A stretch of 64,000 nucleotides of DNA from Pseudomonadota bacterium (GCA_026418415.1 JAOABK010000001.1:7080-71079), one strand, 5' to 3'; shown: positions 24,329-60,904, numbered from the stretch's first letter. Translations and numbers: made by a program. The notes: generated from the sequence alone by a model not told the origin.

Positions 24329-24329
24329 G

Positions 24330-42075: not shown

Positions 42076-43212
42076 ATGAGATTTTTTGATAATATAATTG
42101 AAGGAATCTTTCTCTCAAGAAGAAATAGATTTGTCATAGAATGCCTGATTAATGGTATAAAAACAGAAGCTTATTTACCTAATCCTGGCAGATTGGTAGA
42201 GTTGTTATACAGAGGTGTAAAAATTTATTTGACTAAAGATCTTAATTTGGGAAAATTGAGATTTACTGTTATTGGTGTTAAGAAAGGCGATGACAATGTT
42301 ATGTTACATACCCATGTTTCAAACAAAGTTTTCAAGTATTTATTGGAAAAAAAGTTGTTAAGAGATTTAAAGGATTTTAAAATTCTTCACGAAGAATATA
42401 AGTATAATAACTCGCGATTCGATTTTTTATTGGAAGGTAAGTGTGATAAGAAGGTTGTCGAGGTTAAAACTTGTACACTCTATTACGATAATATAGCAAT
42501 GTTTCCAGATGCAGAGACTAAAAGAGGAACTAAACATCTAATTGAATTATCAAAAGTAAATGGTGCTATCGTTTTTTTAGTTCAATCAAAAAATGTTGAT
42601 TATTTTTTGCCTGAATTTAATATCGATTTTCAATTTGCAAATACTTTAATGAAATTAAAAGATAAAATCTTTGTTAAGGCATATGCAATAGAATGGAATA
42701 ATGATTTTTCTCTAAATCAAAATATTAAAGAATTAAAAATACCCTGGAGAATATTAGAGAATCATTTGGTTGATAGTGGCAGTTACTTCTTGATATTCAA
42801 GCTTAATGAAAACAAAAACATAAAAATTGGTGAAAGAGGTGATATCTTTTTTAAGGAAGGTTACTATATCTATGTTGGTTCTGGTAAAAAAAATTTAAAA
42901 AAAAGAATAGAAAGGCATAGAAGGATAAAAAAGAAAAAATTTTGGCACGTAGATTACTTCAGAGAAAATGCAATTTATTTAACATCAATAATTTTTAGAA
43001 CTCAGAAAGATTTAGAGTGTGAGCTTGCGAAAAAATTATTACAAGTTGCAGATTGGTCTATTAATGGTTTTGGTGCTTCAGATTGTGGGTGTGATACTCA
43101 TATGTTTGGGTTTTATAATAATCCCCTTGATTATGAGAATTTTAGGCAAGTGGTATTTCATTACAGAATAGGTATATTAAAGGAAGAGATTAATAATGGA
43201 CTTGAAATGTAG
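42076..43212 (+). CDS. sfsA: SfsA-family nuclease-like protein fused to C-terminal DUF123 (GIY-YIG-like) domain
   Basis: The N-terminal ~230 aa align to SfsA (RFVIECLING...AYLPNPGRL; FPDAETKRGTKHLIEL). The C-terminal ~140 aa carry the DUF123 signature GYYIYVGSGKKNLKKRIERHRR...FWHVDYF. Confidence 0.65.
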   Translation: MRFFDNIIEGIFLSRRNRFVIECLINGIKTEAYLPNPGRLVELLYRGVKIYLTKDLNLGKLRFTVIGVKKGDDNVMLHTHVSNKVFKYLLEKKLLRDLKDFKILHEEYKYNNSRFDFLLEGKCDKKVVEVKTCTLYYDNIAMFPDAETKRGTKHLIELSKVNGAIVFLVQSKNVDYFLPEFNIDFQFANTLMKLKDKIFVKAYAIEWNNDFSLNQNIKELKIPWRILENHLVDSGSYFLIFKLNENKNIKIGERGDIFFKEGYYIYVGSGKKNLKKRIERHRRIKKKKFWHVDYFRENAIYLTSIIFRTQKDLECELAKKLLQVADWSINGFGASDCGCDTHMFGFYNNPLDYENFRQVVFHYRIGILKEEINNGLEM

Positions 43213-43236: not shown

Positions 43237-44367
43237 ATGAAAACAGCTTTTATTTATACTGATGAGCTTGCAAAATTTAAATATAGTGATACCCATCCAC
43301 TAAAACCTTTTAGATTAAAACTTACTTATGAGCTTATAAAAGCCTATGGCCTCGATGACATTGATAATTCAATATTTAAAAAACCAAAAATAGTTAATGA
43401 AGAGATTTTATTGAAGGTACATACTCACGACTATCTTGATGTATTGAAGACCTTAAATTCTGGCATTGATGTTCCTTACGCATCACATTTTGGTTTAGGT
43501 TATGGAGATAATCCGATATTTAATGGTATGTATGATTGGTCTATGTTGGTTACAAGTGCAACTGTTGAGGCTGCAAATATAATATTAAGTAATGAAGCCA
43601 ACATCGCTTTTAACATTTCTGGAGGTCTTCACCATGCATTACCTAATAAAGCATCGGGTTTTTGTTATATCAATGATATTGCTGTAGCAATAAAATATTT
43701 AATTGATCAGGGGAAAAGGGTCGTATATCTTGATATTGATGCCCATCATGGAGATGGTGTTCAGCATATTTTTTATGATACAAATCGAGTTTTGAAGATT
43801 TCAATACACGAGACTGGTTATTACCTTTTTCCAGGCACAGGGTTTGTAGAAGAGATGGGAGAAAAAGAGGGATATGGATACTCAGTAAATGTTCCATTAC
43901 CACCTTATAGTGATGATGAGGTTTTTCATTACGCATTTGATAAAGTAGTTCCAGAGTGTATTGATAGATTTAAACCAGATATTATTGTTACACAATTAGG
44001 AGTAGATACGCTTTATGACGACCCACTTGCCCATCTTAACTATTCGATTTATGGGTTTTCATCTGCAGTAGAAAAGATAAAAAATTTGGGGATACCCTGG
44101 ATTGCACTTGGTGGTGGTGGATATGACATTGCAAGTGTAGCAAAGGCATGGACTGTAGCATGGGCTGTCATGAACAATAAGGACTTGAACAAGAACATAC
44201 CTGAAGATTTCATGAAAACTTATGGGAAATATGGGTTTGAGAATGATGATCTTTTTGGTCCAAGATATGAATTAGTAGAAGAACAAAAAAAGAAAGTATT
44301 GGAGATTTTAGATAGAGAGATAACTTTTATCCATAAAAAGATTATGCCCCTGATTAAGGATAGATAA
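43237..44367 (+). CDS. Histone deacetylase-family protein (AcuC / acetylpolyamine amidohydrolase-like)
   Basis: HDAC motifs GGLHHA, GFCYINDIA, DIDAHHGDG and the GGGGY loop. Confidence 0.8.
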   Translation: MKTAFIYTDELAKFKYSDTHPLKPFRLKLTYELIKAYGLDDIDNSIFKKPKIVNEEILLKVHTHDYLDVLKTLNSGIDVPYASHFGLGYGDNPIFNGMYDWSMLVTSATVEAANIILSNEANIAFNISGGLHHALPNKASGFCYINDIAVAIKYLIDQGKRVVYLDIDAHHGDGVQHIFYDTNRVLKISIHETGYYLFPGTGFVEEMGEKEGYGYSVNVPLPPYSDDEVFHYAFDKVVPECIDRFKPDIIVTQLGVDTLYDDPLAHLNYSIYGFSSAVEKIKNLGIPWIALGGGGYDIASVAKAWTVAWAVMNNKDLNKNIPEDFMKTYGKYGFENDDLFGPRYELVEEQKKKVLEILDREITFIHKKIMPLIKDR

Positions 44368-45407
44368 TGAGTAAAAATCTCATGCCCTTCGAAGGAAACT
44401 TAATGACGACGGGAATGGGGATACTGCCTCACAAAGATTTGGACAGAGCTCTTAAAATATCAATGTCTGTTGATATTCCCTTTTGGCCACAGTTACCAAA
44501 AATGAGTTTTTTTGAAGATATGTATGTTCAAGCCTCTGAAAATTTTCCTGGAATTATACTTGAGCCTGAAAACCTTAATATATATTTTGATACCGCAAAG
44601 TTCTACTCTCAATTGGAGAATACTCTATTAAATTTTGAAAATCCTGATTTTTTTAAAATGTCTCCTCAATATTCTGCAACCTATCATGCCTTTCTGGGAT
44701 TTGACCTTTCAAAATATGCTTCTATAAGAGGACAGTTGGAAGGCCCAGTAAGTTTTGGTCTAAAAGTATTAGATGAAAATAAGAAACCAATAATATTCAA
44801 TGAAGAAGTTAGATCAATTCTGTTTGATTTCATGGCGAGAAAAGCTAATGTACAACTGCAAGAGCTAAAAGATAAAAATCCAAGAGCTTTCTTATTTATA
44901 GATGAGCCTGGTTTACAATATATATTTAGTAGTGTTTCAGGTTATACAAATGATATGGCAAAGAGAGATTTTGAAATTTTCTTTAATCAGATAGAGCATC
45001 CAAGAGGTATACATCTTTGTGGAAATCCCGATTGGGATTTTCTGCTCAATCTTGATATAGATATTCTTTCTTTTAATGCTTATAACTGTGGAGAAATATT
45101 TGTAAAATATAAGGCGAGCATAAAAAGATTTCTTAAAAGAGGGGGCATAATAGGTTGGGGATTAGTTCCAGCAAATTATGAAGAGTTTCAAAAGGAAAAC
45201 AAAGAGCATCTTATTCATCATATTGAAAATTTGTGGGGGGAACTGGTTAAAGAAGGTTTTGATTTGAAAGAGGTGTTGACTAAAAGTATCCTAATGCCAG
45301 CGACATGTGCACTTTTAAATCCCGATGAATTTAAAACTGTAGAAGAAGCTTATAATTGGCTTAATAATCTATCCCATAAATTAAGAGAGAAATATAAAAT
45401 TGTGTGA
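44367..45407 (+). CDS. MetE-C-terminal/UroD-like TIM-barrel protein (putative Zn-dependent methyltransferase)
   Basis: MTTGMGILP resembles the MetE TTTIGSFP motif, and IHLCGN plus ATCA suggest His/Cys Zn ligands. 1-nt overlap with the upstream HDAC-like gene. Confidence 0.4.
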   Translation: MSKNLMPFEGNLMTTGMGILPHKDLDRALKISMSVDIPFWPQLPKMSFFEDMYVQASENFPGIILEPENLNIYFDTAKFYSQLENTLLNFENPDFFKMSPQYSATYHAFLGFDLSKYASIRGQLEGPVSFGLKVLDENKKPIIFNEEVRSILFDFMARKANVQLQELKDKNPRAFLFIDEPGLQYIFSSVSGYTNDMAKRDFEIFFNQIEHPRGIHLCGNPDWDFLLNLDIDILSFNAYNCGEIFVKYKASIKRFLKRGGIIGWGLVPANYEEFQKENKEHLIHHIENLWGELVKEGFDLKEVLTKSILMPATCALLNPDEFKTVEEAYNWLNNLSHKLREKYKIV

Positions 45408-45506
45408 TTTTTTACGATAAATTTACATTTTTATAATTTTTTTTTAAATTTGTTTTCAGTTTAAGGTAGGGATTTGATTAAACGTTATATAAACAAATTT
45501 TATCTC

Positions 45507-45536
45507 TTGAATTATATTTTTTTAAAATAGTATACT
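45507..45536 (+). promoter_or_regulatory. Putative sigma70 promoter (TTGAAT-N18-TATACT) for the cytochrome/porin operon
   Basis: -35 at 45507-45512 and -10 at 45531-45536, ~20 nt upstream of the AAAGGA ribosome-binding site and ATG 45558. Confidence 0.35.
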
Positions 45537-45557
45537 TACACAAAAAGGCTAAAGGAT

Positions 45558-46559
45558 ATGAAAATACAAAACTTTTTTTTCTTAATAATCTTTTCAGTAA
45601 TTTTGAGTTGCAGTTATTTGACGGAATCAAAGCCATTATTGAAACAATCTGAGATTGAGAAATTAATCGCTGGAAGAATTGATGCAGAATATATTGGGAC
45701 AGATAATTGTTTAAAAAACTGCCATGAAAAGGGAAATGAACACAAAAAGTTGGCAGATTATTTTAAGAAAAGTGTTCATGCAGAACAAATTAATATAGAT
45801 ACACACCTTCCTCTTGTTAATTGTGAAACATGCCATGGACCTGGTAGCATTGCTGTTGAAAACATAAAGGAAGTCAATGGAAAAAAACAGTGCGACTTTG
45901 ATAGTCTAATTAATATAAAGAAGTTGCCAGCTGAGGCAAAAAATCTAATATGTCTTAAATGTCATACAAAAGCCTCTTCACCTAATCTTGCTATGTGGAG
46001 AGGTTCTAAACATGATTTAGCTGGGGTTTCATGTAGTGATTGTCACAAACTACACAAATCCCCTTTGCAAAAAGTTGAGCATAACCAGCAGATTGAGCTA
46101 TGTTTGGGATGTCATAAGAAAATAAAGGTAGAGATTTCAAGTTTATCAAAGCATCCATTTCATGAAAGAAAAATTATCTGTACAGATTGTCACAACCCCC
46201 ATGGAAGCTTTACAAATAATCTTTTAAAAAAGGAGTCTCTTAGAGAAACTTGTGCTAATTGCCATACTGAAAAAGCTGGTCCCTATATTTTTGAGCATGC
46301 TGATTTGATGGATGATTGTAGTAACTGTCACGTTCCACATGGTTCGGTTAATGATAATCTTCTAAAAGTCAAAGAACCTATATTATGTTTAAGATGTCAT
46401 GAAGGTCATCATTCTTTTAGAAGTACTGCATTAAGCCCTGTCAATAAATTAAAATACTATAATAGATGTACTGACTGTCATCTATCAATTCACGGGACAG
46501 ACACTCCTTCTGGTTCAGCCACAACGTTGCCAAAGAATCAAGGGAGGATGTTAAGGTAG
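45558..46559 (+). CDS. Decaheme c-type cytochrome, MtrA/DmsE/PioA-like (periplasmic/lipoprotein)
   Basis: 333 aa with signal peptide and possible lipobox ILSC. Exactly 10 CxxCH motifs: CLKNCH, CETCH, CLKCH, CSDCH, CLGCH, CTDCH, CANCH, CSNCH, CLRCH, CTDCH. Confidence 0.85.
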   Translation: MKIQNFFFLIIFSVILSCSYLTESKPLLKQSEIEKLIAGRIDAEYIGTDNCLKNCHEKGNEHKKLADYFKKSVHAEQINIDTHLPLVNCETCHGPGSIAVENIKEVNGKKQCDFDSLINIKKLPAEAKNLICLKCHTKASSPNLAMWRGSKHDLAGVSCSDCHKLHKSPLQKVEHNQQIELCLGCHKKIKVEISSLSKHPFHERKIICTDCHNPHGSFTNNLLKKESLRETCANCHTEKAGPYIFEHADLMDDCSNCHVPHGSVNDNLLKVKEPILCLRCHEGHHSFRSTALSPVNKLKYYNRCTDCHLSIHGTDTPSGSATTLPKNQGRMLR

Positions 46560-46565
46560 GGATTT

Positions 46566-48443
46566 ATGAAAAAAAATATCATTCTGGTTTTTTTAATATT
46601 TTTTACATCAAATGTAGTATTAGCAGAAGATATTGTTTATAGAGAGTTTTATTTTGAAACTGGATACAAATTTTATTCAGTAGACGGTGCTGTTGACTTA
46701 GTCAATGAATATAAAGCTTCTCGTTCTTCGCCTTATTTCTCATTAACTTATAAAGATCTCTCTCCAAACGATAAAATAATGTTCGATGCATTAATTAATG
46801 AAAAAGATAATAGAAATATTGATTTACACTATATACACAAGGATTTGCTTAATATTGAATTTAGTAATCGCTCATTAGTACATAATTTAGATCACAAATT
46901 ACTTTTATATCACCCTGAAAAATATGATTTAAATCCTTCCACAAATTACAGGCTTGATTTTTTAAAAAACTATTTCTCTACAAAATATAAACCCTTTAAT
47001 TATCCCTTTCATTTAAAACTGATAATTGAAGATATTGAAAGAGATGGGACGGTACAAAAAATATTTTATGGAGCGAGAAGTTTGGACTTGAATATACTTT
47101 CTTTACCTCCAAACCTAAGAAACAACATCTTTTCGAGGGATAGGCAAATAGGTTTTGAAACAGAAAGAATTATAGCAACAATCGATGGAATTTTAGGAGG
47201 AGTTGGATTAGTTTTTGATCTCACATCTGAAAATTTTACTAACAAACATCATAATTCTCTTGATTATTTATTAAATTATCCAACAATAAATAAAAATGCT
47301 TATGAGTTGAAATTATATAGTAATCTTACCGGTCAGTTGAGTTGGGCTCTTGCTTTAAATCGCAGGGATGCAAAAAATCATAATAGAGATGAAATAGGAA
47401 GAGAAGGGGCAAGTGTAACCCAAACAGATACTGTAGCTACAGTTACTTATTATCCAAAGAAAAATTTAAAATTTACTTTAAAAGTTGGTTACTTAGATAG
47501 GGATCAGGATAATCCAGATACCGTGAGGTTTTTAAATAATGATATAGTTGGTATTAAGGATGCGGTGTCCTATTCTAAGAAAACGGCTGATTTTTCAGCA
47601 TGGTATGAAATATCATCCAAAGCAATTTTAAAATTAAATTTAAAAAGAAAGGAAATAGAAAGAAGCTTCAATTATTTTACACTACCGGAGTATTCTCATA
47701 CAAATACAGGTGTCTTGTCTTTAGAAGGCAGGTTAAATAAAAATTTTTCTTATAAACTTATACAGAAGGTCGAAAATAATCATAATCCATCATATAAAAA
47801 AATGCCCGAGATGCTTTACTCCACAGCAGTTAATCTTAACTATGATTTTAATATATTTTCAGGTATTTACTTACAAAGTGAGTATTTAATGTCAGAAAAT
47901 AATTCTGATATTGGATATTTTCGTAGAAGTAGGGAACACAAACACTTCTTGAACTGTTGGATTAATATAAGCGATGATTTAAATTTAAATTTATATGGTT
48001 ATTATAACAGTGAAAAATTCATATCAAATATTCAGTATGGTAGTTCAAACCCAACGTTTTTTTTAGATAAAGATGTTCCATACTCTTTTACGCTTTACCA
48101 AACAGGGCTAAATATTAGTAAGATTATAAATAAAAAACACAATTTATATGGAGACGTTAGTTATGTTCGTGGATATGGTACTTATTATCCCCATCTCTTT
48201 ATAGGAACAGTTACTAATCCAGGACCACCATTAGTAACTTATAATTTCAATACTTTAGGTTTAGATAGTTTGGCTTCTACGGATTTTTATCAATATGGAA
48301 TTTTATTGGGAAATAGTTATTCAATTGGAAAAAGATCAAGGGTTAGATTAGAAGCAAGCTTGAAGGATCATGTAGATAAAACCAATTATCCTAAAGAGGG
48401 AACTGTTAAGATGGTTTTTGTATCCTGGGAAATGAAATGGTAA
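46566..48443 (+). CDS. Outer-membrane beta-barrel protein, MtrB/PioB-like porin partner of the decaheme cytochrome
   Basis: 625 aa with signal peptide (VVLA-ED), alternating hydrophobic/Tyr-rich strand patterns, and a C-terminal OMP signature ...VFVSWEMKW. It begins 7 nt after the cytochrome stop. Confidence 0.7.
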   Translation: MKKNIILVFLIFFTSNVVLAEDIVYREFYFETGYKFYSVDGAVDLVNEYKASRSSPYFSLTYKDLSPNDKIMFDALINEKDNRNIDLHYIHKDLLNIEFSNRSLVHNLDHKLLLYHPEKYDLNPSTNYRLDFLKNYFSTKYKPFNYPFHLKLIIEDIERDGTVQKIFYGARSLDLNILSLPPNLRNNIFSRDRQIGFETERIIATIDGILGGVGLVFDLTSENFTNKHHNSLDYLLNYPTINKNAYELKLYSNLTGQLSWALALNRRDAKNHNRDEIGREGASVTQTDTVATVTYYPKKNLKFTLKVGYLDRDQDNPDTVRFLNNDIVGIKDAVSYSKKTADFSAWYEISSKAILKLNLKRKEIERSFNYFTLPEYSHTNTGVLSLEGRLNKNFSYKLIQKVENNHNPSYKKMPEMLYSTAVNLNYDFNIFSGIYLQSEYLMSENNSDIGYFRRSREHKHFLNCWINISDDLNLNLYGYYNSEKFISNIQYGSSNPTFFLDKDVPYSFTLYQTGLNISKIINKKHNLYGDVSYVRGYGTYYPHLFIGTVTNPGPPLVTYNFNTLGLDSLASTDFYQYGILLGNSYSIGKRSRVRLEASLKDHVDKTNYPKEGTVKMVFVSWEMKW

Positions 48444-49357
48444 AGAGATTTATCTTATTGATGATAATTTTTTTATTTATTATAGGCGATAGGTCCTATT
48501 CTAAGGAGAGAGTTGTTGCTGTAATTTTAGCATCTAATTTAGAAAAGTTTAAAATAGCCTATAATGAATTACAAAGAACGCTACAAGAACATAAAAAGGA
48601 TAGTTATGTTCAGATTGTTTTATCAACACCTAACCCTGATCCTGCTTCATGGGCAAATGCTTTAAAGAGGGCGGAAGGTATGGAAGTAGATTTAATTATT
48701 GCTTTTGGCGCTCCTCTTGCTTATACGGCTTTGAAGGAAAGAATATCAGTGCCTCTTTTGTATGTTGATGTCTATGAAAAGGGTATTCTCGATGCTTTTA
48801 AATCAAAACAGATGACTGGGATTTATAATGTTATTCCAATAACAACAGTTTTGAAGAATTTGTTAGCGTTAAAGAGTTTTAAAACCTTACATGTTCTATA
48901 TTGTCCTTTAGAGAAAGAGAGCGAAATACAAGCAGGAAAAATTAAAGAGTTAGCAGAATACGAAGGTATAAAAGTATCCCTACATCCTTTAAAAAGTGCT
49001 CAATCAGTTTATGATATAAGTATAAACAATACCGATGCAATTTTTTTAACATCATCTGTAATTTTAGAGATGGGTGCTAATAAGATAGCTCAGTTTGCAA
49101 TAGAAAAAGAGGTTCCTTTAGTTGGTGTTTCAGAGACTGTAACAAATGCAGGTGGACTTATGTGTGTTGCACCGGATGCTAAAATACAGGGTAGGTTAAT
49201 TTCAAATTTTTTGTTAAACTATATTGAAAAGGGTATTTTAACTAAGAGCGAACAGATTAAGGAAGTTAATTTTATACTAAATATGAAGACTGCAAAAAGA
49301 ATTAATATTACAATACCTTTTACAGTTTTAAATAACGTAACAAAGGTAATAAAATGA
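48437..49357 (+). CDS. Periplasmic substrate-binding protein (ABC_sub_bind / PF04392-like)
   Basis: Signal peptide and PBP-fold motifs (DLIIAFGAPLAYTA, VPLVGVSETVTNAGGLMCVAPD). The start overlaps the barrel stop by 7 nt. Confidence 0.65.
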   Translation: MVKRFILLMIIFLFIIGDRSYSKERVVAVILASNLEKFKIAYNELQRTLQEHKKDSYVQIVLSTPNPDPASWANALKRAEGMEVDLIIAFGAPLAYTALKERISVPLLYVDVYEKGILDAFKSKQMTGIYNVIPITTVLKNLLALKSFKTLHVLYCPLEKESEIQAGKIKELAEYEGIKVSLHPLKSAQSVYDISINNTDAIFLTSSVILEMGANKIAQFAIEKEVPLVGVSETVTNAGGLMCVAPDAKIQGRLISNFLLNYIEKGILTKSEQIKEVNFILNMKTAKRINITIPFTVLNNVTKVIK

Positions 49358-51408
49358 AAGAAAAGAGCATAAAAACACCATTATACACAACAGTATTTAT
49401 CTCAATAGCATTAGCTTCACTAATTACAGCAATAGTCATTACAATCAATTTTTATAGTGATTATAAAAATAATGTATATAAAACCATTCGAAATATAGGT
49501 AATAAATTTAGTGATGATTTGCAGAAGATGATTGCCTTTGGTTTAACTATTTATGATATACCTAATTTCCAAAATGATTTAAATGAGAAATTGAATGAGG
49601 AACCAAGTATAGCATATATAATTATAACTGAGATGGATGGAACAATTTTAGCAACCAATTCAAATACACAATTAAATCAAAAGTTTTTAAGTAAAGATAT
49701 GGAAGATGTTAATGTTAATAATGAGAGGGCTTTGAATTTTCAAATAAAGGTAAAAGATCCGGAAAGACAAAATGAATTAAGATACTTGATAAACATTGGT
49801 TTGAAAAAGGGTTTTTTAAGTAAAAAAATTTACGGTTCTTTAATGATGGTGCTTGCTGTATCATTTACCACTATTTTCACAGTTTTCTTTGTTTTTAAGA
49901 GAATTATTAATAAAAGAATTGTAGAACCATTAAAAGAACTTAAAGATGCTACAGAAAAGGTTACTAATGGAGAACTATCTGTTAGTCTAACCCCTGTTTT
50001 TAATGATGAAATTGGACTTGTAACAGACAACTTCTCTGCGATGGTTAAAGAAATCAAAGAGATACTGAATAAAATTAAGGATAGTATAGAAAAGCTCAGA
50101 AATATAGGCGATAGAACTGGAGAAATAAGTCAAACCGTTAGAGATGGTTCTTTTAAACAAAAAGAGGGCATAGACAACATAAGAAAGATTTACTCTGATA
50201 TAGAAGATAGAATAAAAGCCCTCAAAAACAAGGTAAATTCACTGAATGATTTTCTTGAGCTTACTACTTCTACATTTTTGGAATTATCTGCTTCTTCTGA
50301 AGAGATTTCAAAGCTTATGGAGGAACTTCTTAGTGTAGTAGTTAAAGTAGAAGAGGCTTATAATAAACTTAGAAATATAAACATAAAACTTGATGAAGGA
50401 GCAGTTCTTTTAGAAAGGGAAGTAGAAAATATTCTTTCCTTTGTAAATCAATTAGACGCTTCGGTCAGAATAACTCTTCAGAACATTAATGAAACTTCAA
50501 GGATGGCTGAAAAAATAAATAAATTGGCAGAAGAGAGTAAATGGGCAACAAAAAGTTCAATTGAAAGTGTCAATAAAATGGCTGAAGTAACATTAGAGAC
50601 TAAAAATGCCTTCGGAATATTAAGAAACAATATAAACAAAATAACAGCAATTTTAGATGTTATAAATGAGGTTGCTGAACAGACAAATATGTTGGCTCTT
50701 AATGCTGCAATTATTGCAACTCAGAGTGATGAAAGTGGAAGAGCATTTGCTATAGTCGCTGATGAAATAAAAAATTTGTCTCGAAGAACACAAAAATCTA
50801 CCCTTGAGATATCGAGTCTTATTTCAGATATTATGAATCAAACTGAAAATGTATATTTTAAGGTTCAAGAAAGCGTTAATGAAGGTAATGTAGTTCTGGA
50901 ACAATCAAGGAATATCGAAGAAAAGGTTGCTCAAATTATTGATTTAGTATATAAACTAACAGAAAGTATGGGACAGGTTCTAAAGGCATCAAACGAACAA
51001 TCTGAAGGGAGTTCAGCTTTAAGAAGGGGTGTAGAAGATTTAAAAAATATTTCTAAAACATTAATAAATGTAAAAGATGAAGCGGTTAAGGTGGGTAACA
51101 CTATTAATGAATTATTTGATTTTATAGTTAACGTTACTAATAAAGTAAACAACTCGGTAAGAGAACAAAATGCATCAATAGGGAGTGTTAAAGGTTCCTT
51201 TGTTGAATTAAGTAATTTTTCAAAGGATTTAGTTGAACATATAGATAAAGAGGAAAAGGAGATAAAAATCTCAGAAAAAGCTCTTGAAGATGTATTGAAT
51301 TTATCCGAAGAAAATGCGATTAAGAGTAAAAACTTAGAAGAAAAGTTGTTAGAAATAAAAGAACAAATTTCTCTTTTCAAGGATTTGACAAACAAATTCA
51401 GACTTTAA
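49354..51408 (+). CDS. Methyl-accepting chemotaxis protein
   Basis: Two TM helices flank a ~130-aa periplasmic domain, followed by HAMP and the highly conserved MCP signalling region (EQTNMLALNAAIIATQSDESGRAFAIVADEIKNLSRRT). ATGA overlap with the binding-protein gene. Confidence 0.85.
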   Translation: MKEKSIKTPLYTTVFISIALASLITAIVITINFYSDYKNNVYKTIRNIGNKFSDDLQKMIAFGLTIYDIPNFQNDLNEKLNEEPSIAYIIITEMDGTILATNSNTQLNQKFLSKDMEDVNVNNERALNFQIKVKDPERQNELRYLINIGLKKGFLSKKIYGSLMMVLAVSFTTIFTVFFVFKRIINKRIVEPLKELKDATEKVTNGELSVSLTPVFNDEIGLVTDNFSAMVKEIKEILNKIKDSIEKLRNIGDRTGEISQTVRDGSFKQKEGIDNIRKIYSDIEDRIKALKNKVNSLNDFLELTTSTFLELSASSEEISKLMEELLSVVVKVEEAYNKLRNINIKLDEGAVLLEREVENILSFVNQLDASVRITLQNINETSRMAEKINKLAEESKWATKSSIESVNKMAEVTLETKNAFGILRNNINKITAILDVINEVAEQTNMLALNAAIIATQSDESGRAFAIVADEIKNLSRRTQKSTLEISSLISDIMNQTENVYFKVQESVNEGNVVLEQSRNIEEKVAQIIDLVYKLTESMGQVLKASNEQSEGSSALRRGVEDLKNISKTLINVKDEAVKVGNTINELFDFIVNVTNKVNNSVREQNASIGSVKGSFVELSNFSKDLVEHIDKEEKEIKISEKALEDVLNLSEENAIKSKNLEEKLLEIKEQISLFKDLTNKFRL

Positions 51409-51527
51409 TAAATTTGGTAATAATTAAAAGATTACCGAGCTATTTAATATCAAGTTTATTTTTTTTTTATCTTCATCTATAATAATTAAGCTATATTTTT
51501 AAAAATCACTCCTATAGGAGGGGTAAT

Positions 51528-54023
51528 TTGGAAAGCTTAAATTTTGTGGGAAAAGTTGTTGAAGTTAATATCGAAGAAGAGGTTAAACAATCCTATCTCG
51601 ACTATGCTATGAGTGTTATTGTTGGAAGAGCTCTTCCCGACGCTAGGGATGGACTGAAGCCTGTTCATAGAAGAATACTTTATGCCATGTATGACATGGG
51701 AAATGAATGGAATAAACCTTATAAAAAATCAGCACGTATAGTTGGAGATGTTATAGGTAAATATCATCCCCATGGTGATCAAGCAGTTTATGATGCAATA
51801 GTTAGAATGGCTCAAGACTTTTCAATGAGAATGCCACTTATTGATGGGCAAGGTAATTTTGGGTCTATTGATGGAGATCCACCTGCTGCTATGCGTTATA
51901 CAGAAGTCAGGATGAAACAGCTCTCTTCAGAATTACTTGCAGATATAGATAAAGATACTGTGGATTTTGTTCCTAATTATGATGGATCTTTAAAAGAACC
52001 AGTTGTTTTACCCGCTAAATTTCCTAATTTACTTGTCAATGGTGCTTCAGGAATAGCAGTCGGAATGGCTACTAATATTCCCACTCACAATCTTGTTGAA
52101 TGTATTGATGCTACAATTTATTGTATTGATAATCCTGATTGCTCAATTGAAGATATCATAAAAATAATGCCAGGCCCCGATTTTCCAACATACGGAATTA
52201 TTTATGACAATGGTGATATATTTAATGCCTATAAAACAGGGCGAGGTACAATAAAAATTAGGGGTAAAATTGAGGAAGAAGCCCTAAAGGGAGATAAGAC
52301 AGCTCTTGTAATAACAGAGTTACCCTATCAGGTTAACAAGGCTGAATTAATAAAAAAAATAGCTGAATTAGCGAGAGATAAAAAAATAGAAGGGATATCA
52401 GACATAAGAGACGAGTCTGATAAAGATGGTATACGTGTTGTGATTGAATTAAAAAGAAATGTGCCGGGTTTAATAATTAAAAACCAGCTTTTTAAATATA
52501 CACAACTTGAACAGTCTTTTGGTATTAATATGATTGCCCTTGTTAAGGGACAACCTAAGCTACTAAATCTAAAAGAACTTATATTTGTTTTCATTGAACA
52601 TAGAAAAGAAGTTGTTACAAGAAGAACACTATTTGATTTAAATGATGCAAAAAAAAGAGCTCATATACTTGAAGGTCTGAAAATAGCCATAGATAATTTA
52701 GACTTAACGATAAAATTGATTAGAGAATCTAAATCACCAAAAGAGGCCAAAACAGCCTTAATGACAAATTTGAGTCTCAGTGAAGAACAGGCTCAAGCAA
52801 TACTTGACATGAAGCTTCAAAGACTAACGAACATGGAAAGGGAAAAGATTATTGAAGATTATGAAAAAATAATAAAGTTGATAGCAGAATTAGAAGGCAT
52901 ACTAAAAGATGAAAGGAAAATTTATGATATTATTAAAAAAGAGTTAGAAGAGATAAAAAATAAATATGGTGATAAAAGAAGAACAATAATAGAAGCACAA
53001 CAAATTGAACTTGACAAAGAAGATTTGATCCCCGAAGAACAGGTTGTAGTAACGATTACCCATAGGGGATTTATAAAAAGAACACCAGTAAATGAATATA
53101 AGAAACAAAAAAGAGGTGGCAAAGGGAAAATCGGGTTAACACTAAAGGAAGGGGATTTTATAAGAGATCTTTTCATAGCCTCAACCCATGATTATATTCT
53201 TGCTTTTACTAACTTAGGAAGAATGTACGTAAGCAAAACCTATGAATTTCCTGAAGCAGATAGGACCTCCTATGGAAAAATTATTACTAACTATTTCCCT
53301 TTGAAAGAGAACGAAAAGGTAATTAACTTAGTTTCAGTTAGTACTTTTGATACTGATAAAGAAATATTTTTTGCTACAGAAAAGGGAATTGTAAAAAAGA
53401 CCGCACTGAGCTTATTTAAAAATGTAAGAAAGACTGGAATTAATGCTATAAACATACATGATGATGATTTTCTTGTGTCTGCTGCTATAGTAGGAATTGA
53501 TGAAGATATAATACTCTCCACTAAAAATGGAAAGAGTATAAGATTTGGAGTCGAGCAAGTAAGAAGCATGGGAAGAACTGCTGCTGGAGTTAAGGGAATT
53601 GAGTTGAGTGAAGGAGATAAGGTTGTCTCTATGGATGTTATAACCAAGGATGATGATAGCTCACTTTTAACTGTGACAACTTTAGGGTATGGCAAAAGAA
53701 CTAAGATCAAAGAGTATAGAGTTCAAAATAGAGGGGGAAAAGGTATTTTGACTGTCAGACTGACAGAAAAAAATGGAAATGTTATGGGAGTTTTACACGT
53801 AAAAGATGATGATGAGATATTGCTCATTTCAAGTAGTGGAAAAATTGTAAGATTGTCGGTCAAAAGTAGCATACCTGAATATGCAAGAAATAGCCAGGGT
53901 GTAAAACTAATAGATTTACAGGGCGATGAGAGGATAGTGAGCATTGGTAAGATAATAGAGAAGGAAGAAATCGAAGAAAATGAGACAGAAGGGGAAAATG
54001 GCGATGAAAATAAACTATTATAA
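51528..54023 (+). CDS. gyrA: DNA gyrase subunit A
   Basis: Active-site region [26 protein letters not shown] and C-terminal beta-pinwheel repeats. Probable TTG start after GGAGGGG. Confidence 0.95.
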
Positions 54024-55324: not shown

Positions 55325-55645
55325 TTATATAAAAATCTAATTTTTATAATTCAGATATTGAATCGCTTTATTTTCTAATTTTTTATTTCAATAATTTTGC
55401 TTTTCAGGGTATAAATTTTAAAAATTTTATTAAAACGTTAAAATTATAAAAATTTAATTGACAAATTTTAATTATAGAAGTAGGATTGCGATTAGAAATG
55501 TTTAATATAATAAAAAAGATATCTCAACCCTTTTTAGTATCTGTTAAATTTTTACCGTTTTTTAACAATAATATTGATCAAGCTGCTTTTTTTAGTTTTC
55601 AAATTTTACAAAAAATTAAATTCAACGTATTTAGTGAGGAAAAAT

Positions 55646-58600
55646 GTGAAACCTAAAAGTTTAAAATTTTTATTTTTATTTTTTTTTATAGTTTTCTTTG
55701 TTAAAACTGCCTTTAGTGTTGATCCACCACATGATAGATTTAGCTGTAATAATTGTCATGGAAACAATTTGATCTCAACTAAAAATGGTGGACTGGATTT
55801 AAGCCGGATGTGTTTAGACTGTCATAAGCCCGGTGGCTATGGAAAGCCTGTAAACACAAAACCTGCAAACCCCTATGGTACAGCTGATTTAATTATACAA
55901 AGGCACAAAGGAACGGAGCATGCCTTTTTAGGTGGTGACAACAATCCTTTAGCGAAAGCGGTTAGCCCCTCTGGTGACGAGTTTTATGGTCATAATGTAA
56001 CTGGAGTTATAACATGCGCTTCCTGTCACAATCCCCATGTTCAAAATAATGAAGATGGAAAGTTTTTACGAGTGAAATTAGGTAAAACAGACGAACTATG
56101 TTTAAGATGTCATGTAGATATGAACCAAAAACCTAATGGATACTCCCATCCAGTGAACGTTTCTCTCAATAAAGATGGTTTCTTTGTTCTGCCTCAGTTT
56201 AGTTCCTTAAGAAAGGTTTATGAGAAAAAGGAAAATAATTTAACCTGTACAGTATGCCATAAAACACATAATGGTTTTTCAAAAATAACATCTTATGGTC
56301 ATTCTGGTGATGGCTTTCTTGGAAGAACTGAAATTGATGAATGGTTGTGTTTACAGTGTCATAAAAAACCTGTTCATGGAAATTCAAAGGGGAGGCCAGA
56401 GCCTTTATGCAAAGATTGCCACACAATGCATAACCCAGGGAATAACATCAAATTGATAAAAAATAGTATAAACTTTAACGGTAATACAAAGGAAGTTAAT
56501 TTTAAAAACAATTCTTTAGCGACTGACTTTTATAATTTAGAGGGCAGTGGTGTTTGTCAGGTTTGTCATAGAAACACAAAATACTTTAAAAACTATACTG
56601 CATCTAAGTTTATAGTTACAGGAACATCCATTCACAACCCAGATAATCTAATTTGTACAGAATGTCATTCCCATGGGAATTTGGTTAATTTTCAAGCTCC
56701 AAAGGCTAAAGAAAAGCCAAATTTTGAAAAAGATGCTTTTAAAGGATGTGCGGGATGTCATGGTTTTCCACCTACATTAAATTCTTTAGGTAATAATGGA
56801 CTTGCAAGAAATGAAGGTGGAACGGGTTCTATGAATGTTGGTGCTCATATAAAACATGCAACAGAAACTGGTTATTCATTTGCTTGTAATACATGCCATA
56901 AGGGTGGAATGCCATTAACACCAATATACGATAAGAAGATTCAAATTGGTTTCGAGCTTTTTAATGGGCTTTTAAAAGGAGGTTTTTTTGAGGGAAGGAG
57001 CTCTATTAAAAATGGTTATAGTTTTTCAAGTGGTAATGGGGAAACAAATGTCTCTAATGGTAGCACAAGCAAATGCACAAACATATACTGCCATAGCAAT
57101 GCGAATCCTATCGACAAAGCAACAGTTTACAAAGAGATAGGGTGGAATAATAAAAATATTTCATGTAGGGATTGTCATAATGATATTACATATCCCGATG
57201 GTCTAAGTAGTTATCATAAAAAACATTTACAAAGTGGCTATAACTATAAATGCGAGGATTGTCATAAAGAAACAGTAATAGGAAATAATGAAATTAAGAA
57301 TAAGACCAAGCATGTAAATAGTATAAAAGACGTTGTATTTAAGCTAACAGGCGATTATGGTGTTGATAAGTCTTGTACTGTTTATTGTCATAGCGATGGA
57401 AAGGGAGGCCAACCCGAACAACAGGTTAGATGGAATATTAGTTTAACAATATCCTGCGATTCATGTCATAGAGGCAGGCTTAATGATTTTAAACAAATGA
57501 CTTCTTTTGGTCATAATAGGTTGGTGAGTAAAAACTGGATTAGAAAATATCCTTGCTATTATTGCCATGATGATACTGTTGATGAAAATGGAAATATAAA
57601 AAGTTATACAAAACATATAAACCAGATTAAAGATGTCAAAATGAGTTCTAAATGGGCAATCCCAGGAAGACCAGAACCAGCATACATAACATCTACAAAG
57701 GTTTGTACTAATGTATATTGCCACAGTGATGGGACTACAAATCCAGAAGCAGTTAAACCATTTTCATGGAATGAGGGAAGGGCTAATTGTGATACCTGTC
57801 ATGGACATCCGAGAGGTACTTGTAATAATGCAGGTTGTCATGATGGCATAGCGAGAGAATTAAAGATAGATTGGAAACCCGAGGACATATGGAAATCTTC
57901 TGTGCCAATGTATCCAAATGAAGGAGCTGGAAAGCCAAGAGCTAACTCTCATGCAAGACATATAGAAACTAATTTTACCTGTGATAAATGTCACGCAACT
58001 ACAATAATTGGTGGAGATTGTTTAAGTTGTCATAAAAATGGTATCCCTCCTGGAAGCATGACAGAGGCACCTCATCTTAATGCGAATTATCATGTAAATG
58101 GTAGGAAGGACGTTGTATTCAAAGATGGTGGTGTTTATAACCCTATAACTAAGACATGTTCGAATACTAATTGTCATACTGGTGGTAGCGATCCACAGTG
58201 GGGTGGATCAGTTAATAGCGCTGTTATATGCCTTAGCTGTCATGGAACAACAGGTGGCGATATTGATAATTTTGATGCCTTCGATGGTACTCAAGCTAAG
58301 ATAAACCTAACACAATGGGCTGTCGCAGGACACGGAAGAAAAGCATCTCATGGCAATTATCCTTCAGGAAATCCTCCCGCAAATTTTCCGGGAAATCCCT
58401 GTTGGTATTGTCATGATAATACAGTGCTTCACAAGAAAGCTGATAATCCCTATAGGTTAAAATTACATAATCAGTTTGAAAGAAGGTTTGATAAAGAGTG
58501 TGTTTACTGTCATATGGAGAAGAAAGAAGAAGAGTGTTTAAAGTGCCATAATAGCGTGGAATCACTTGCACCACAGATGAATTCAGCATCTGTTGTAGCA

Positions 58601-60904
58601 AAACATTCAAATAATATATATCTTAATGGATGTCTTAACTTACAATGCCATCCTAATGATGACAAAATTCACAAAACAGGTTCTGGCTTCTGGAATTACA
58701 CCTTGAAGGTACAGATTAAAAAACAGTATGTGTTTATGGGTGTATGTCTTAAATGCCATGATGATGATAGTGAGGGGCAATGTGAATCCTGTCATGCAAT
58801 TGATAATAAGCATAAGTTGGGTTATGATCCTGGTACTGGATTTATAAAACCACAAAAAGCAAAAGCTGCTGGTACTCACTATGGTTATAAGCATTATCTA
58901 CAGGGTTCTACTAAGGGAGGAAAATTTTGTTGGGATTGTCATGATCCTCATGGTGATACAAATATTTATATGATACACGATAAAGTAGCTGTTGAAACAG
59001 ATGGTATATTCGGAAAACCAGTTCAAAGAGCGAGTGTTGTATTTACAAGAAAACAAAGTGGCAGTGATTATGTGAAAATAAACGCACCCTATAATGGTAT
59101 TTGCAATGTTTGTCACAGCTATGGAAGCCAGCATTACAGAAAAGATGCTGGAGATGGACACCAGTTAGGAAGGGTTTGTACAGAATGTCATAATCACAGA
59201 TTTACCGATAGTCATTCTTCAGGACAACAATGTAATACCTGTCATTTAAACAAACCTATACCAAGACACTCATCCTTCGGACTACCAAGAGATTGCACAA
59301 AATGCCACAATGGTACTATTGGAAGAAGAACAAATGTTATGGCACAGTTAAAAGGAAATTCTCACCATATTCAGAATGTAAACGTAACAAACAGACATTG
59401 TTATGCTTGTCATTGGGAAGCAACCCCTGAAGGGATTGTGAATAATGATTATCATGAAGGCTACAATACTAAAACCCATTCTTCAAGGAAGGATGCAAAA
59501 GTAGATCTTGTTGTTTGGGGACCCAATAAAAGACCAACGGTTTATAAACTCTATTCTTCCGCGGTAGTATTCGTTGCAATTAGTAGTATTGGAACTCCAA
59601 GAGAAAGGGAGCAGGTAGGGAATATTTCTCAGCATTGTTTGAGCTGTCATAGTGATAAAAATAATGATACACAGCCATTTAATGATTGTAAAACACCCAA
59701 TCAATATGCATGGGATAGAAGCAGTATCGAAAGTAGATTTAAGAATAAAGAAACAACTAAATGGGGTAAGTATAATACTTCAGGGGCAGCAAAGAAGGAT
59801 ATAAATAAAGCACTATCTGCCCATGGAAATGCAAAAGCAAATGCTGGAGGCTTTGATCCAGCAAATGGCTTGGATGGAACGATTCCTAATACAAGAAATG
59901 GAAATGCAAACGTGGAATGCTTTGATTGTCATAATTCTCATGGTTCATTAGTAGGTGGAAACACTTCGAGTTATATATCCTTTAATGGAACAAAAAATGG
60001 AGGTATTTTAAAAGATACAACAGCAGGAAGAAGTGGTTATCCAATAACATATAGAGCACAGGGTAAGAGTGATGGTATTAATCCCTATTCTGTTCAAGCA
60101 GGACAATGCTTTGATTGTCACATGACGGAAAATGGTGGAGTTACAACACCTTGGGGGTACAAGTCAACCTTTGGAGCAACTCAACCTATTATGGGATATT
60201 ATGATTCAATCAAATTTGGTGAAGGAGATTCTGGTGCGAAGAAGAGATTTAGTTTTAGAAATCCCCTTAATATAAAGGGAGGGCATTTTAAAGCAAGTTC
60301 TAATCTTGTTAATACACCAGATAAACAAATAGAAGGATTGTGTACTAATTGCCATGATCCCCATGGTGTAAGCCCATCCTTTGGTGAAGATAGATTTTAC
60401 GCAGTTCCATTGCTCAAAGGGACATGGCTCACATCTCCTTATAAAGAAGATATTCCACCAACTCATGGCCCAACAGGTGGTAGTTATTTATATGATAGTC
60501 CTCAAAATCATACTAATCTTGATTCAACTTCTGTATTTCCAAATGGTAAAGCAGATGAACCAGAAGAAAAGTTTGCAGGTCTATGTCTTAAGTGCCATCC
60601 AAAAAACAAACTAACTGATGGAGTAAATCAGAATACTGCATGGAAGAGCCTTGATAGGGTTCATGAGACTGTGAAAGGTTGGGGAAAGAATACTAAGCAT
60701 AATTTTGTATGCTCAAAGTGTCATGCACCTCATACAAGCTTATTACCCAGACTCATGGTAACTAACTGTATTGATTATAACCACAGAGGAATGGTAGCTT
60801 CTGGTGGGTATCCAAATGGTGGTCGAGGTGGTAGTTATCCACAATGTCATCCTCAAGATGGGAGCTGGCCTAAGAGTTATTGGAACTGGAAGACTCCATG
60901 GTAA
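55646..60904 (+). CDS. Giant secreted multiheme c-type cytochrome (~1,753 aa, ~36 CxxCH + 6 CX3-4CH motifs)
   Basis: GTG 55646 follows GAGGA, with a Sec signal peptide (FFVKTAFS|VDPP). I counted 36 canonical CxxCH plus six C-x(3,4)-CH variants (e.g. CTNIYCH, CTVYCH, CTNVYCH). The track ORF starts further upstream at 55574. Confidence 0.85.
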   Translation: MKPKSLKFLFLFFFIVFFVKTAFSVDPPHDRFSCNNCHGNNLISTKNGGLDLSRMCLDCHKPGGYGKPVNTKPANPYGTADLIIQRHKGTEHAFLGGDNNPLAKAVSPSGDEFYGHNVTGVITCASCHNPHVQNNEDGKFLRVKLGKTDELCLRCHVDMNQKPNGYSHPVNVSLNKDGFFVLPQFSSLRKVYEKKENNLTCTVCHKTHNGFSKITSYGHSGDGFLGRTEIDEWLCLQCHKKPVHGNSKGRPEPLCKDCHTMHNPGNNIKLIKNSINFNGNTKEVNFKNNSLATDFYNLEGSGVCQVCHRNTKYFKNYTASKFIVTGTSIHNPDNLICTECHSHGNLVNFQAPKAKEKPNFEKDAFKGCAGCHGFPPTLNSLGNNGLARNEGGTGSMNVGAHIKHATETGYSFACNTCHKGGMPLTPIYDKKIQIGFELFNGLLKGGFFEGRSSIKNGYSFSSGNGETNVSNGSTSKCTNIYCHSNANPIDKATVYKEIGWNNKNISCRDCHNDITYPDGLSSYHKKHLQSGYNYKCEDCHKETVIGNNEIKNKTKHVNSIKDVVFKLTGDYGVDKSCTVYCHSDGKGGQPEQQVRWNISLTISCDSCHRGRLNDFKQMTSFGHNRLVSKNWIRKYPCYYCHDDTVDENGNIKSYTKHINQIKDVKMSSKWAIPGRPEPAYITSTKVCTNVYCHSDGTTNPEAVKPFSWNEGRANCDTCHGHPRGTCNNAGCHDGIARELKIDWKPEDIWKSSVPMYPNEGAGKPRANSHARHIETNFTCDKCHATTIIGGDCLSCHKNGIPPGSMTEAPHLNANYHVNGRKDVVFKDGGVYNPITKTCSNTNCHTGGSDPQWGGSVNSAVICLSCHGTTGGDIDNFDAFDGTQAKINLTQWAVAGHGRKASHGNYPSGNPPANFPGNPCWYCHDNTVLHKKADNPYRLKLHNQFERRFDKECVYCHMEKKEEECLKCHNSVESLAPQMNSASVVAKHSNNIYLNGCLNLQCHPNDDKIHKTGSGFWNYTLKVQIKKQYVFMGVCLKCHDDDSEGQCESCHAIDNKHKLGYDPGTGFIKPQKAKAAGTHYGYKHYLQGSTKGGKFCWDCHDPHGDTNIYMIHDKVAVETDGIFGKPVQRASVVFTRKQSGSDYVKINAPYNGICNVCHSYGSQHYRKDAGDGHQLGRVCTECHNHRFTDSHSSGQQCNTCHLNKPIPRHSSFGLPRDCTKCHNGTIGRRTNVMAQLKGNSHHIQNVNVTNRHCYACHWEATPEGIVNNDYHEGYNTKTHSSRKDAKVDLVVWGPNKRPTVYKLYSSAVVFVAISSIGTPREREQVGNISQHCLSCHSDKNNDTQPFNDCKTPNQYAWDRSSIESRFKNKETTKWGKYNTSGAAKKDINKALSAHGNAKANAGGFDPANGLDGTIPNTRNGNANVECFDCHNSHGSLVGGNTSSYISFNGTKNGGILKDTTAGRSGYPITYRAQGKSDGINPYSVQAGQCFDCHMTENGGVTTPWGYKSTFGATQPIMGYYDSIKFGEGDSGAKKRFSFRNPLNIKGGHFKASSNLVNTPDKQIEGLCTNCHDPHGVSPSFGEDRFYAVPLLKGTWLTSPYKEDIPPTHGPTGGSYLYDSPQNHTNLDSTSVFPNGKADEPEEKFAGLCLKCHPKNKLTDGVNQNTAWKSLDRVHETVKGWGKNTKHNFVCSKCHAPHTSLLPRLMVTNCIDYNHRGMVASGGYPNGGRGGSYPQCHPQDGSWPKSYWNWKTPW

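Follow-up and report, generated by a model that had tools for sequence, protein, structure and literature searches.

Why should a gene for a chemoreceptor be coupled to the genes of what appears to be an electron conduit across the outer membrane? The question is raised by four genes on the plus strand, spanning positions 45558-51408 of a 64-kb window (64,000 nucleotides of a Pseudomonadota bacterium, GCA_026418415.1, JAOABK010000001.1:7080-71079; ORF, i.e., open reading frame, analysis of the whole window). They encode (i) a decahaem c-type cytochrome, (ii) an outer-membrane β-barrel protein, (iii) a periplasmic binding protein (PBP) of family PF04392, and (iv) a methyl-accepting chemotaxis protein (MCP). 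The GyrA of the host shares only about 60 % identity with that of the nearest relatives (Thermodesulfobacteriota), a small uncultured clade excepted. The answer favoured here, for which the chances are judged to be about even, is that the four genes work together as a single functional unit, a predicted trans-outer-membrane sensor of redox state or minerals that would feed chemosensory signalling.

The four genes and their predicted products

The genes for the cytochrome (45558-46559), the barrel protein (46566-48443), the PBP (48437-49357) and the MCP (49354-51408) are closely packed. The gap between the cytochrome and barrel genes amounts to 6 nucleotides, one fewer than given in a preliminary description of the locus, and the adjacency of the two genes is kept in relatives. 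The barrel stop and the PBP start overlap by 7 nucleotides (48437-48443), and the PBP stop and the MCP start share ATGA (49354-49357), both as that description had it. Ten haem motifs within 333 amino acid residues, combined with conserved gene overlaps, are far beyond chance.

The cytochrome (333 residues; 'DmsE family decaheme c-type cytochrome' at NCBI, MCX7769501.1) belongs by profile and sequence similarity to the MtrA/DmsE/OmcK family. Its score against TIGR03508 (DmsE/MtrA decahaem), the type of profile search proposed beforehand, is 248.3 bits (cut-off 192.2) and covers profile positions 1-257 of 258; in addition, phmmer aligns residues 46-320 with MtrA of Shewanella (6R2Q_A, E 1.9e-51). 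An exported cytochrome with ten CxxCH motifs in 333 residues had been claimed originally. Length, export and the number of ten sites are borne out, but only nine sites are CxxCH, the tenth being CxxxCH (C51-LKN-C55-H56). Judged from the alignment, this first site in the sequence is a real tenth haem-binding site, because CxxxCH is conserved there in 18 of 19 aligned orthologues, the other one (L016) having CxxCH. The N-terminus comprises a signal peptide with a hydrophobic segment and a lipobox (ILS-C18), the cysteine of which is kept in 17 of the 19 orthologues. Conservation is also high over the next 30 residues or so, the conserved N-terminal segment reading C-x-x-L-K-E-S-R-P-I-L-P...Y-V-G-T. 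Since lipobox cysteine and first haem site are both conserved among these orthologues, the protein is an exported, probably lipid-anchored lipoprotein with ten predicted haems.

The barrel protein (625 residues) is annotated as 'hypothetical protein' at NCBI and obtained no Pfam match even at E ≤ 10; thus, PF11854 (MtrB_PioB), one of the families the preliminary description had suggested searching, does not recognize the window protein itself. Many of its relatives, by contrast, are recognized. A word-indexed search yielded six close homologues besides the barrel itself and two distant ones. The distant homologue P0008 (23 % identity over 86 % of the query) matches PF11854 with 46.5 bits (cut-off 23), and an exhaustive profile search retrieved 443 cluster representatives of about 650 residues, from which 38 of 64 sampled family members match PF11854 at E ≤ 1e-3. 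The family profile reached no solved structure by sequence, a search of PDB sequences returning noise only. An AlphaFold2 model built on the family alignment (pLDDT 90.1, pTM 0.81) comprises 26 long strands, and the Foldseek comparison of this model with the PDB places MtrB (6R2Q_B) first (E 1.2e-18, TM-score 0.76/0.73), all remaining matches having TM-scores of 0.47 or less and being mostly TonB-dependent receptors. The sequence also displays a signal peptide (VLA/ED) and has Trp as its last residue. Based on this fold match and the PF11854 matches of relatives, the protein can be placed, by modelled fold and transitive homology, as a divergent member of the MtrB/PioB/OmcL superfamily. The outer-membrane β-barrel of 625 residues proposed at the outset therefore agrees with a model of about 26 strands resembling 6R2Q_B, and so does the supposed MtrAB/PioAB/MtoAB-like layout, in which an MtrA-family decahaem protein is directly followed by an MtrB-fold barrel.

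The PBP (306 residues) was correctly recognized as PF04392-like from the outset (57.5 bits, cut-off 25.9; match to 3LFT_A with E 5.6e-7). It has a type I fold and a Sec signal peptide, lacks a lipobox, and shares with its orthologues an invariant C-terminal T-[KR]-[VI]-[IL]-K motif. The start at 48437 is a chosen one, on which the 7-nucleotide overlap with the barrel gene depends; it is favoured by the conserved N-terminus (MVKR/MVKK) and by the proper signal peptide resulting from it. Public annotation probably uses a different start, since the sequence beginning at 48437 is absent from the protein collection, in which the three neighbouring proteins of the unit are present. No gene for an ABC permease or ATPase was found inside the unit, either in the window or in the relatives. 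Thus, the adjacent ABC partner expected of a PF04392 substrate-binding protein is missing, and a function of the PBP as component of an ABC importer was ruled out, the unit having no transporter.

The MCP (684 residues) is a full-length receptor, as described before, with two transmembrane segments (residues ~13-31 and ~163-181) enclosing a periplasmic domain of about 130 residues, a HAMP domain (residues 185-235; 41 bits) and a signalling domain (MCPsignal; 110.8 bits). The signalling hairpin has its tip at residue 460 and symmetric arms of 224 + 224 residues, corresponding to 32 + 32 heptads ('64H-like'); 64H is, to our knowledge, the longest length class of chemoreceptors. An arm of about 225 residues between tip and C-terminus is common to nearly all complete MCPs of related loci, including that of the window, the arm length of which recurs in at least 47 MCPs of related loci. 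Such a rare arm length, shared by nearly all complete MCPs, suggests a dedicated type of receptor array. Searches with the N-terminal part were less informative: a weak match to NF053592 ('HK near YfiR-like') reaches 33 bits (cut-off 194), the homologue search with residues 1-240 returned no matches, and the single-sequence model of these residues (pLDDT 45) is of too low confidence for use.

Conservation of the gene order

Close relatives, the barrel proteins of which are 58-68 % identical to that of the window, share the four genes together with the whole neighbourhood and for this reason add little to the case for a specific linkage. A distant set comprises 22 loci from species-representative genomes, mostly of Nitrospirota and Thermodesulfovibrionales, including one Geobacter metagenome-assembled genome (MAG) and one 'Deltaproteobacteria' MAG. 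Barrel identity is here 20-24 % and cytochrome identity mostly 44-49 %. In these distant loci the PBP gene follows the barrel gene wherever the contig continues (L016 excepted), and it is itself usually followed by a gene for an MCP or another signalling protein. At intermediate distance, locus L028 (barrel 33-34 % identical) contains the four genes in the same order, with a PBP/MCP overlap of ATGA and, according to the gene calls of the contig, a barrel/PBP overlap of 7 nucleotides as in the window. The context of L028 is different, with cobalamin-synthesis genes on one side and an amino-acid ABC transporter on the other, and this transporter, which follows the MCP, carries its own binding protein (SBP_bac_3).

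The same arrangement emerged from a search starting from the PBP, which covered 80 metagenome loci and was evaluated for those loci in which the respective position could be assessed. The barrel gene is located directly upstream of the PBP gene in 47 of 49 loci and the cytochrome gene further upstream in 29 of 30. Directly downstream of the PBP gene follows an MCP gene (39 of 48 loci), a gene for a PhnD-like protein (7 of 48) or nothing (2 of 48); wherever the contig extends, the PhnD-like protein is succeeded by a histidine kinase with HAMP domain. The overlaps of 7 nucleotides between barrel and PBP genes and of 4 nucleotides between PBP and MCP genes recur in many loci. Genes for an inner-membrane quinol dehydrogenase, a soluble periplasmic cytochrome or an ABC transporter were not found among the flanking genes examined.

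Because order and overlaps recur in distant relatives and in the different context of L028, the four genes can be said, as far as gene order tells, to stay together as one block, signalling protein included, across bacterial phyla; their linkage is no local accident. The comparison of gene orders proposed in the preliminary description has thus come out in its favour, the order conduit-PBP-MCP being kept at 20-24 % barrel identity and in L028. The same can be said of the other two properties on which that description had made itself dependent, insofar as they are accessible from sequence and fold: the barrel is related to MtrB, and the cytochrome carries export signals.

These results also bear on a sceptical explanation, according to which the neighbourhood is a conserved accident devoid of functional meaning, or the cytochrome-barrel pair is no electron conduit at all. 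Its proponents could point out that the unit is known from sequence and models alone and from no experiment, that the window barrel has no Pfam match, and that even the profile of its family reaches no solved structure by sequence. Yet the fold match to MtrB is specific, the cytochrome passes a curated decahaem model, and the block is kept across phyla and in differing contexts with conserved overlaps, so that this explanation is strongly disfavoured and regarded as very improbable. A non-exhaustive full-text literature search found no description of a linkage between such a conduit and a PBP or signal transducer.

Alternative transducers and Che clusters

In a minority of loci the MCP is replaced by a histidine kinase (L009:13716-15692, L021:11596-13302, L023:11132-12601, L027:5983-7455, L074:8793-10745 and five more). 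The periplasmic sensor domain of these kinases is helical, belongs to no Pfam family and contains an invariant C-x-x-C-H-H motif in ten of ten aligned sequences; a PhnD-like (PF12974) binding protein precedes each of them. By its sequence, the CxxCHH motif is a predicted c-type haem site. Redox sensors with a haem-c domain in the periplasm form a recognised class (PMC8396549), and the variant kinases are accordingly interpreted, on the strength of this motif, as a direct redox-sensing design placed beside the same cytochrome-barrel-PBP core.

The sensor regions of kinases and MCPs are not homologous, since only the HAMP domains align in an hhalign comparison. A sensor domain common to both transducers as docking site of the PBP was therefore ruled out. 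The PBP gene directly follows the barrel gene whichever sensor the transducer has, i.e., sCache in the MCPs or the haem-c domain in the kinases. For this reason, the PBP may be part of the conduit and not of the receptor, and it appears to constitute a third component of OmcKL-type clusters that has so far been overlooked.

Che clusters enclose the unit in at least 17 loci of Nitrospirota (L010:1426-21826; also L004-L006, L008, L011, L013, L017, L019, L020, L022, L067, L084, L093, L098, L101 and L107). Summed over these loci, the cluster opens with genes for a DUF4388 protein, CheY, CheA, an AAA_22 protein, CheW and, in most loci, an MtrC-like lipoprotein decahaem cytochrome. These are followed by the genes for cytochrome, barrel and PBP, one to four MCPs, CheW, a HEAT-repeat protein, CheR and CheB, the last two being seen where the contig extends far enough (CheR in L011 and L022, CheB in L011). 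The MtrC-like lipoprotein, present upstream in most Nitrospirota relatives, comprises about 650 residues with 9-10 CxxCH motifs, an MtrC/MtrF domain (PF22113) and a lipobox. As the HEAT-repeat protein recalls the Che7 system of Myxococcus, the output of these clusters may, by this analogy, not be flagellar.

A peculiar ORF of 962 residues is found upstream of the cytochrome gene in L011 (5875-8763). It combines an MCP (Mcp40H-20 sensor, HAMP and MCPsignal domains) with a C-terminal PhnD-like domain and could represent a true fusion or an artefact of assembly or frameshift.

Proposed function of the unit

From homology and fold it would be expected that the lipoprotein decahaem threads the 26-strand barrel, so that a chain of haems would span the outer membrane as a wire. 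This wire may serve mainly for reporting rather than for bulk respiration, and it would report on an electron acceptor or donor outside the cell (its redox state or its presence), examples being mineral surfaces, metals, redox shuttles and partner cells. On the periplasmic side, the wire would be read by the PF04392 PBP together with the inner-membrane receptor, which in turn would modulate a dedicated CheA/CheW array of very long (64-heptad) receptors. One may speculate that the PBP connects the outer-membrane complex with the receptor by switching partners or by serving as a docking adaptor, much as in the YfiB-YfiR-YfiN relay (cf. the weak NF053592 match of the MCP), whose periplasmic component moves between a lipoprotein of the outer membrane and a sensor of the inner membrane; alternatively, it might bind or carry a small aromatic redox mediator. 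So conceived, the unit would represent a trans-outer-membrane 'electrical antenna', transmitting the outside redox state via a periplasmic adaptor to a chemoreceptor or haem-c kinase and further into a private Che pathway. This full chain is proposed tentatively, its probability falling somewhat short of even.

A sensory function is preferred on four grounds: (i) a transducer is nearly always present, and genes for inner-membrane or soluble electron carriers are absent from the flanks; (ii) the alternative transducer, i.e., the kinase, is itself a predicted haem protein; (iii) Che clusters are built around the conduit; and (iv) the receptors are of a special length class.

Several observations weigh against a sensory function. 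A physical or redox link between conduit and receptor is assumed, and so is taxis as its output. Genes for CheA, CheW or other Che proteins were not found within the 64-kb window. Moreover, a motif scan of the window MCP detected no CxxCH haem motif, so that this receptor was ruled out as a haem-c sensor of the GSU0582/GSU0935/DcrA type; among the MCP-like ORFs of related loci, CxxCH is absent in 82 and present in one. The periplasmic domain of MCPs of the window clade has no Pfam match of its own and is colinear with the sCache_3_2 domain of 25 out of 29 relatives, and members of sCache_3_2 usually bind small soluble ligands directly. Conserved Cys or His residues are absent from the alignment of PBP orthologues. 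The solved proteins of family PF04392 bind aromatic amino acids, the structures holding Trp, Tyr or Phe (PMC10443332). With respect to the conduit, GSU2203/2204 are up-regulated on the iron oxides haematite and magnetite (PMC4070692), and this Geobacter pair (OmcK/OmcL) is treated as a working conduit (PMC4070692, PMC10553843). Given this induction on iron oxides and this treatment, a respiratory role has to be reckoned with. Finally, there are loci deviating from the common composition of the unit. In L053 (2559-6721) and L061 (452-1450), a GSU2204-like barrel with one CxxCH is followed by the PBP and no transducer lies downstream, and in L074 the PBP, the PhnD-like protein and the haem kinase are present with no conduit within 7 kb upstream.

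The main rival explanation is a working respiratory or oxidative conduit of the MtoAB/PioAB/OmcKL type accompanied by an ordinary receptor. PBP and MCP would then sense a soluble cue, candidates being Fe(II), chelates and aromatic or organic compounds, and would be co-expressed with the conduit for swimming to useful sites, which comes close to the ligand-delivering co-sensor envisaged for the PBP in the preliminary description. Homology of the conduit to proven electron conduits agrees with this explanation as well as the mineral-dependent induction of GSU2203/2204, the sCache_3_2 sensor of the relatives' MCPs, the ligands of PF04392 structures together with the known ability of substrate-binding proteins to stimulate chemoreceptors, and the presence of a large cytochrome with MtrC-type domain (1776 residues, see below) 4 kb downstream. 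However, it leaves unexplained that in about 96 % of the loci the conduit is followed by a transducer but not by an inner-membrane or periplasmic electron carrier, that a haem-c sensor kinase serves as the alternative transducer, that the PBP is constant beside unrelated sensor domains of the transducers, and that whole Che clusters surround the conduit. An ordinary receptor beside a respiratory conduit is therefore considered a possible, though less likely, explanation.

The deviating loci L053 and L061 could, on the other hand, indicate that the conduit has the PBP as its third, structural subunit (assembly factor, periplasmic cap or docking site of a carrier) that takes no part in signalling, leaving the MCP or kinase to sense alone. 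This would be in accord with the PBP tracking the barrel in 47 of 49 loci with a conserved overlap of 7 nucleotides, with the locus of the Geobacter MAG, where the PBP adjoins only a response regulator, and with transducer sensor domains that are not mutually homologous. Opposed to it are the ATGA overlap of PBP stop and MCP start in most loci, the near-universal transducer, for which it offers no explanation, and L074, where the PBP accompanies the haem kinase in the absence of a nearby conduit. A purely structural PBP is accordingly regarded as improbable.

If the antenna proposed above proves true, some of the 'MtrAB/MtoAB-like' genes that are scored as markers of iron respiration in MAGs, those of Nitrospirota among them, would encode sensors and not respiratory conduits. 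This concerns annotation practice, since MtrAB/MtoAB-like matches are routinely read as iron respiration of the respective MAG and may, in the family of the present unit, report sensing instead. By what means bacteria find insoluble electron acceptors or donors is a long-standing question, to which the current answers (energy taxis, gradients of shuttles and chemotaxis towards Fe(II)) are indirect. The conserved conduit-chemoreceptor unit, with a haem-c kinase as alternative, provides a concrete, genetically compact candidate for direct sensing of redox-active material outside the cell.

Comparison with known conduits and receptors

The window locus resembles MtrAB of Shewanella (6R2Q) as well as MtoAB/PioAB in that a decahaem cytochrome of the same family (333 residues) is directly followed by an MtrB-fold barrel of about 26 strands, and it resembles MtoAB/PioAB further in having no neighbouring mtrC gene. 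It differs from all three in several respects. MtrA of Shewanella is soluble and not a lipoprotein, whereas the window cytochrome is a predicted lipoprotein and has CxxxCH as its first haem site. The window barrel is too diverged for PF11854, the PF04392 protein and a signal transducer are constant components of the unit, and a gene for a partner of the CymA, MtoD or PioC type is not part of it. MtrAB pairs lacking MtrC have been reported in magnetotactic bacteria, and the portion of this report dealing with them describes neither a binding protein nor a link to signalling (PMC13200544).

By NCBIfam profiles, the closest named family is OmcK/OmcL (GSU2203/GSU2204). The window cytochrome scores 232 bits against NF041028 (GSU2203, OmcK), and the N-terminus of the window barrel weakly matches NF041027 (GSU2204) with 44 bits. 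Neither score reaches the equivalog cut-off of its family (325 and 350, respectively), which indicates a related family rather than membership. The GSU2204 family has been described as MtrB/PioB-type barrels (PMC13188914) and corresponds to OmcL in PMC10553843. A further likeness is the PBP gene directly following the barrel gene in L015 (the locus of the Geobacter MAG) and in L053 and L061. In contrast to the barrels of the OmcL family, the window barrel contains neither a CxxCH motif nor a selenocysteine site according to the motif scan. OmcKL of Geobacter and of syntrophic sulfate reducers are presented as cytochrome plus porin, a binding protein or transducer not being mentioned in that portion of the source (PMC10553843).

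Chemoreceptors with periplasmic haem c are represented by GSU0582 and GSU0935 of Geobacter and DcrA of Desulfovibrio (PMC8396549). The present unit shares with them the idea of coupling periplasmic redox sensing to Che proteins, and the CxxCHH motif of its kinase variants fits in here. It differs in that the window MCP has no haem site and the putative redox input would come through a haem wire in the outer membrane; on that account, the cell's outside rather than its periplasm would be sensed.

Receptors depending on a binding protein are exemplified by MBP-Tar, LuxP-LuxQ, TorT-TorS and AioX-AioS. The orphan PBP of the present unit likewise adjoins a membrane transducer and, as far as the genes tell, is translationally coupled to it. 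Compared to these receptors and to YfiBNR, the difference lies in the outer-membrane partner, which would be a multihaem cytochrome complex, as none of these systems has.

Transcription signals and other genes of the window

The start at 45507 assigned to the feature in the preliminary description had to be abandoned, since there is no start codon at this position and the codon frame beginning there encounters a TAG stop after seven codons. The cytochrome gene starts with the ATG at 45558, which is preceded by AAGGA. Promoter-like hexamers (TTGAAT-18 nucleotides-TATACT, plus strand) are located at 45507-45536 in the 150-nucleotide gap 5' of the cytochrome gene. They constitute weak evidence for a promoter only, as matches of this kind are about as frequent here as chance predicts for AT-rich DNA (30 % G+C; 39 found versus 33.9 expected). 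Within 45300-51700 no terminator-like site was detected on the plus strand. The promoter/terminator scan thus speaks neither for nor against a single transcript.

Of the genes upstream of the unit, that for an HDAC protein and that for a protein of 346 residues (44367-45407) were considered as members and ruled out, being absent from the distant loci and from L028. The 346-residue protein belongs to no Pfam family and has a weak methionine-synthase-like match (22 bits); it is 85-89 % identical among close relatives and hence more conserved than the barrel of the neighbouring unit (58-65 %).

Downstream of the unit, the window lacks an adjoining MtrC-type gene and thereby the three-component arrangement of MtrCAB. 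At a distance of 4 kb, past gyrA, a TPR gene and a SPOUT methyltransferase gene, the plus strand encodes a multihaem cytochrome of 1776 residues (55574-60904) with an MtrC/MtrF-like domain. It contains 36 CxxCH and six Cx3-4CH motifs, including CxxxxCH motifs of the Geobacter type, and matches PF22113 (81 bits) and PF09698 (58 bits). The linkage of this gene to the unit is loose, considering its presence at the same place in the close relative L026 and its absence there in two others, L024 and L025; judged from its domain, the protein is a possible extracellular partner of the conduit. Directly after its gene begins an ORF of more than 1027 residues (60918-64000), which runs past the window end and encodes a signal peptide and β-propeller repeats (PQQ_2/BamB-like, SBBP and DUF5122).

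Two further observations concern more remote genes of the window. At 22511-25766, two response-regulator genes adjoin each other, the second of which (24330-25766) combines REC with DUF4388, the domain that also opens the unit-containing Che clusters of Nitrospirota. The gene at 42076-43212 encodes an SfsA nuclease-like protein that carries a DUF123/GIY-YIG-like domain as a C-terminal fusion, and this fusion is kept in close relatives.

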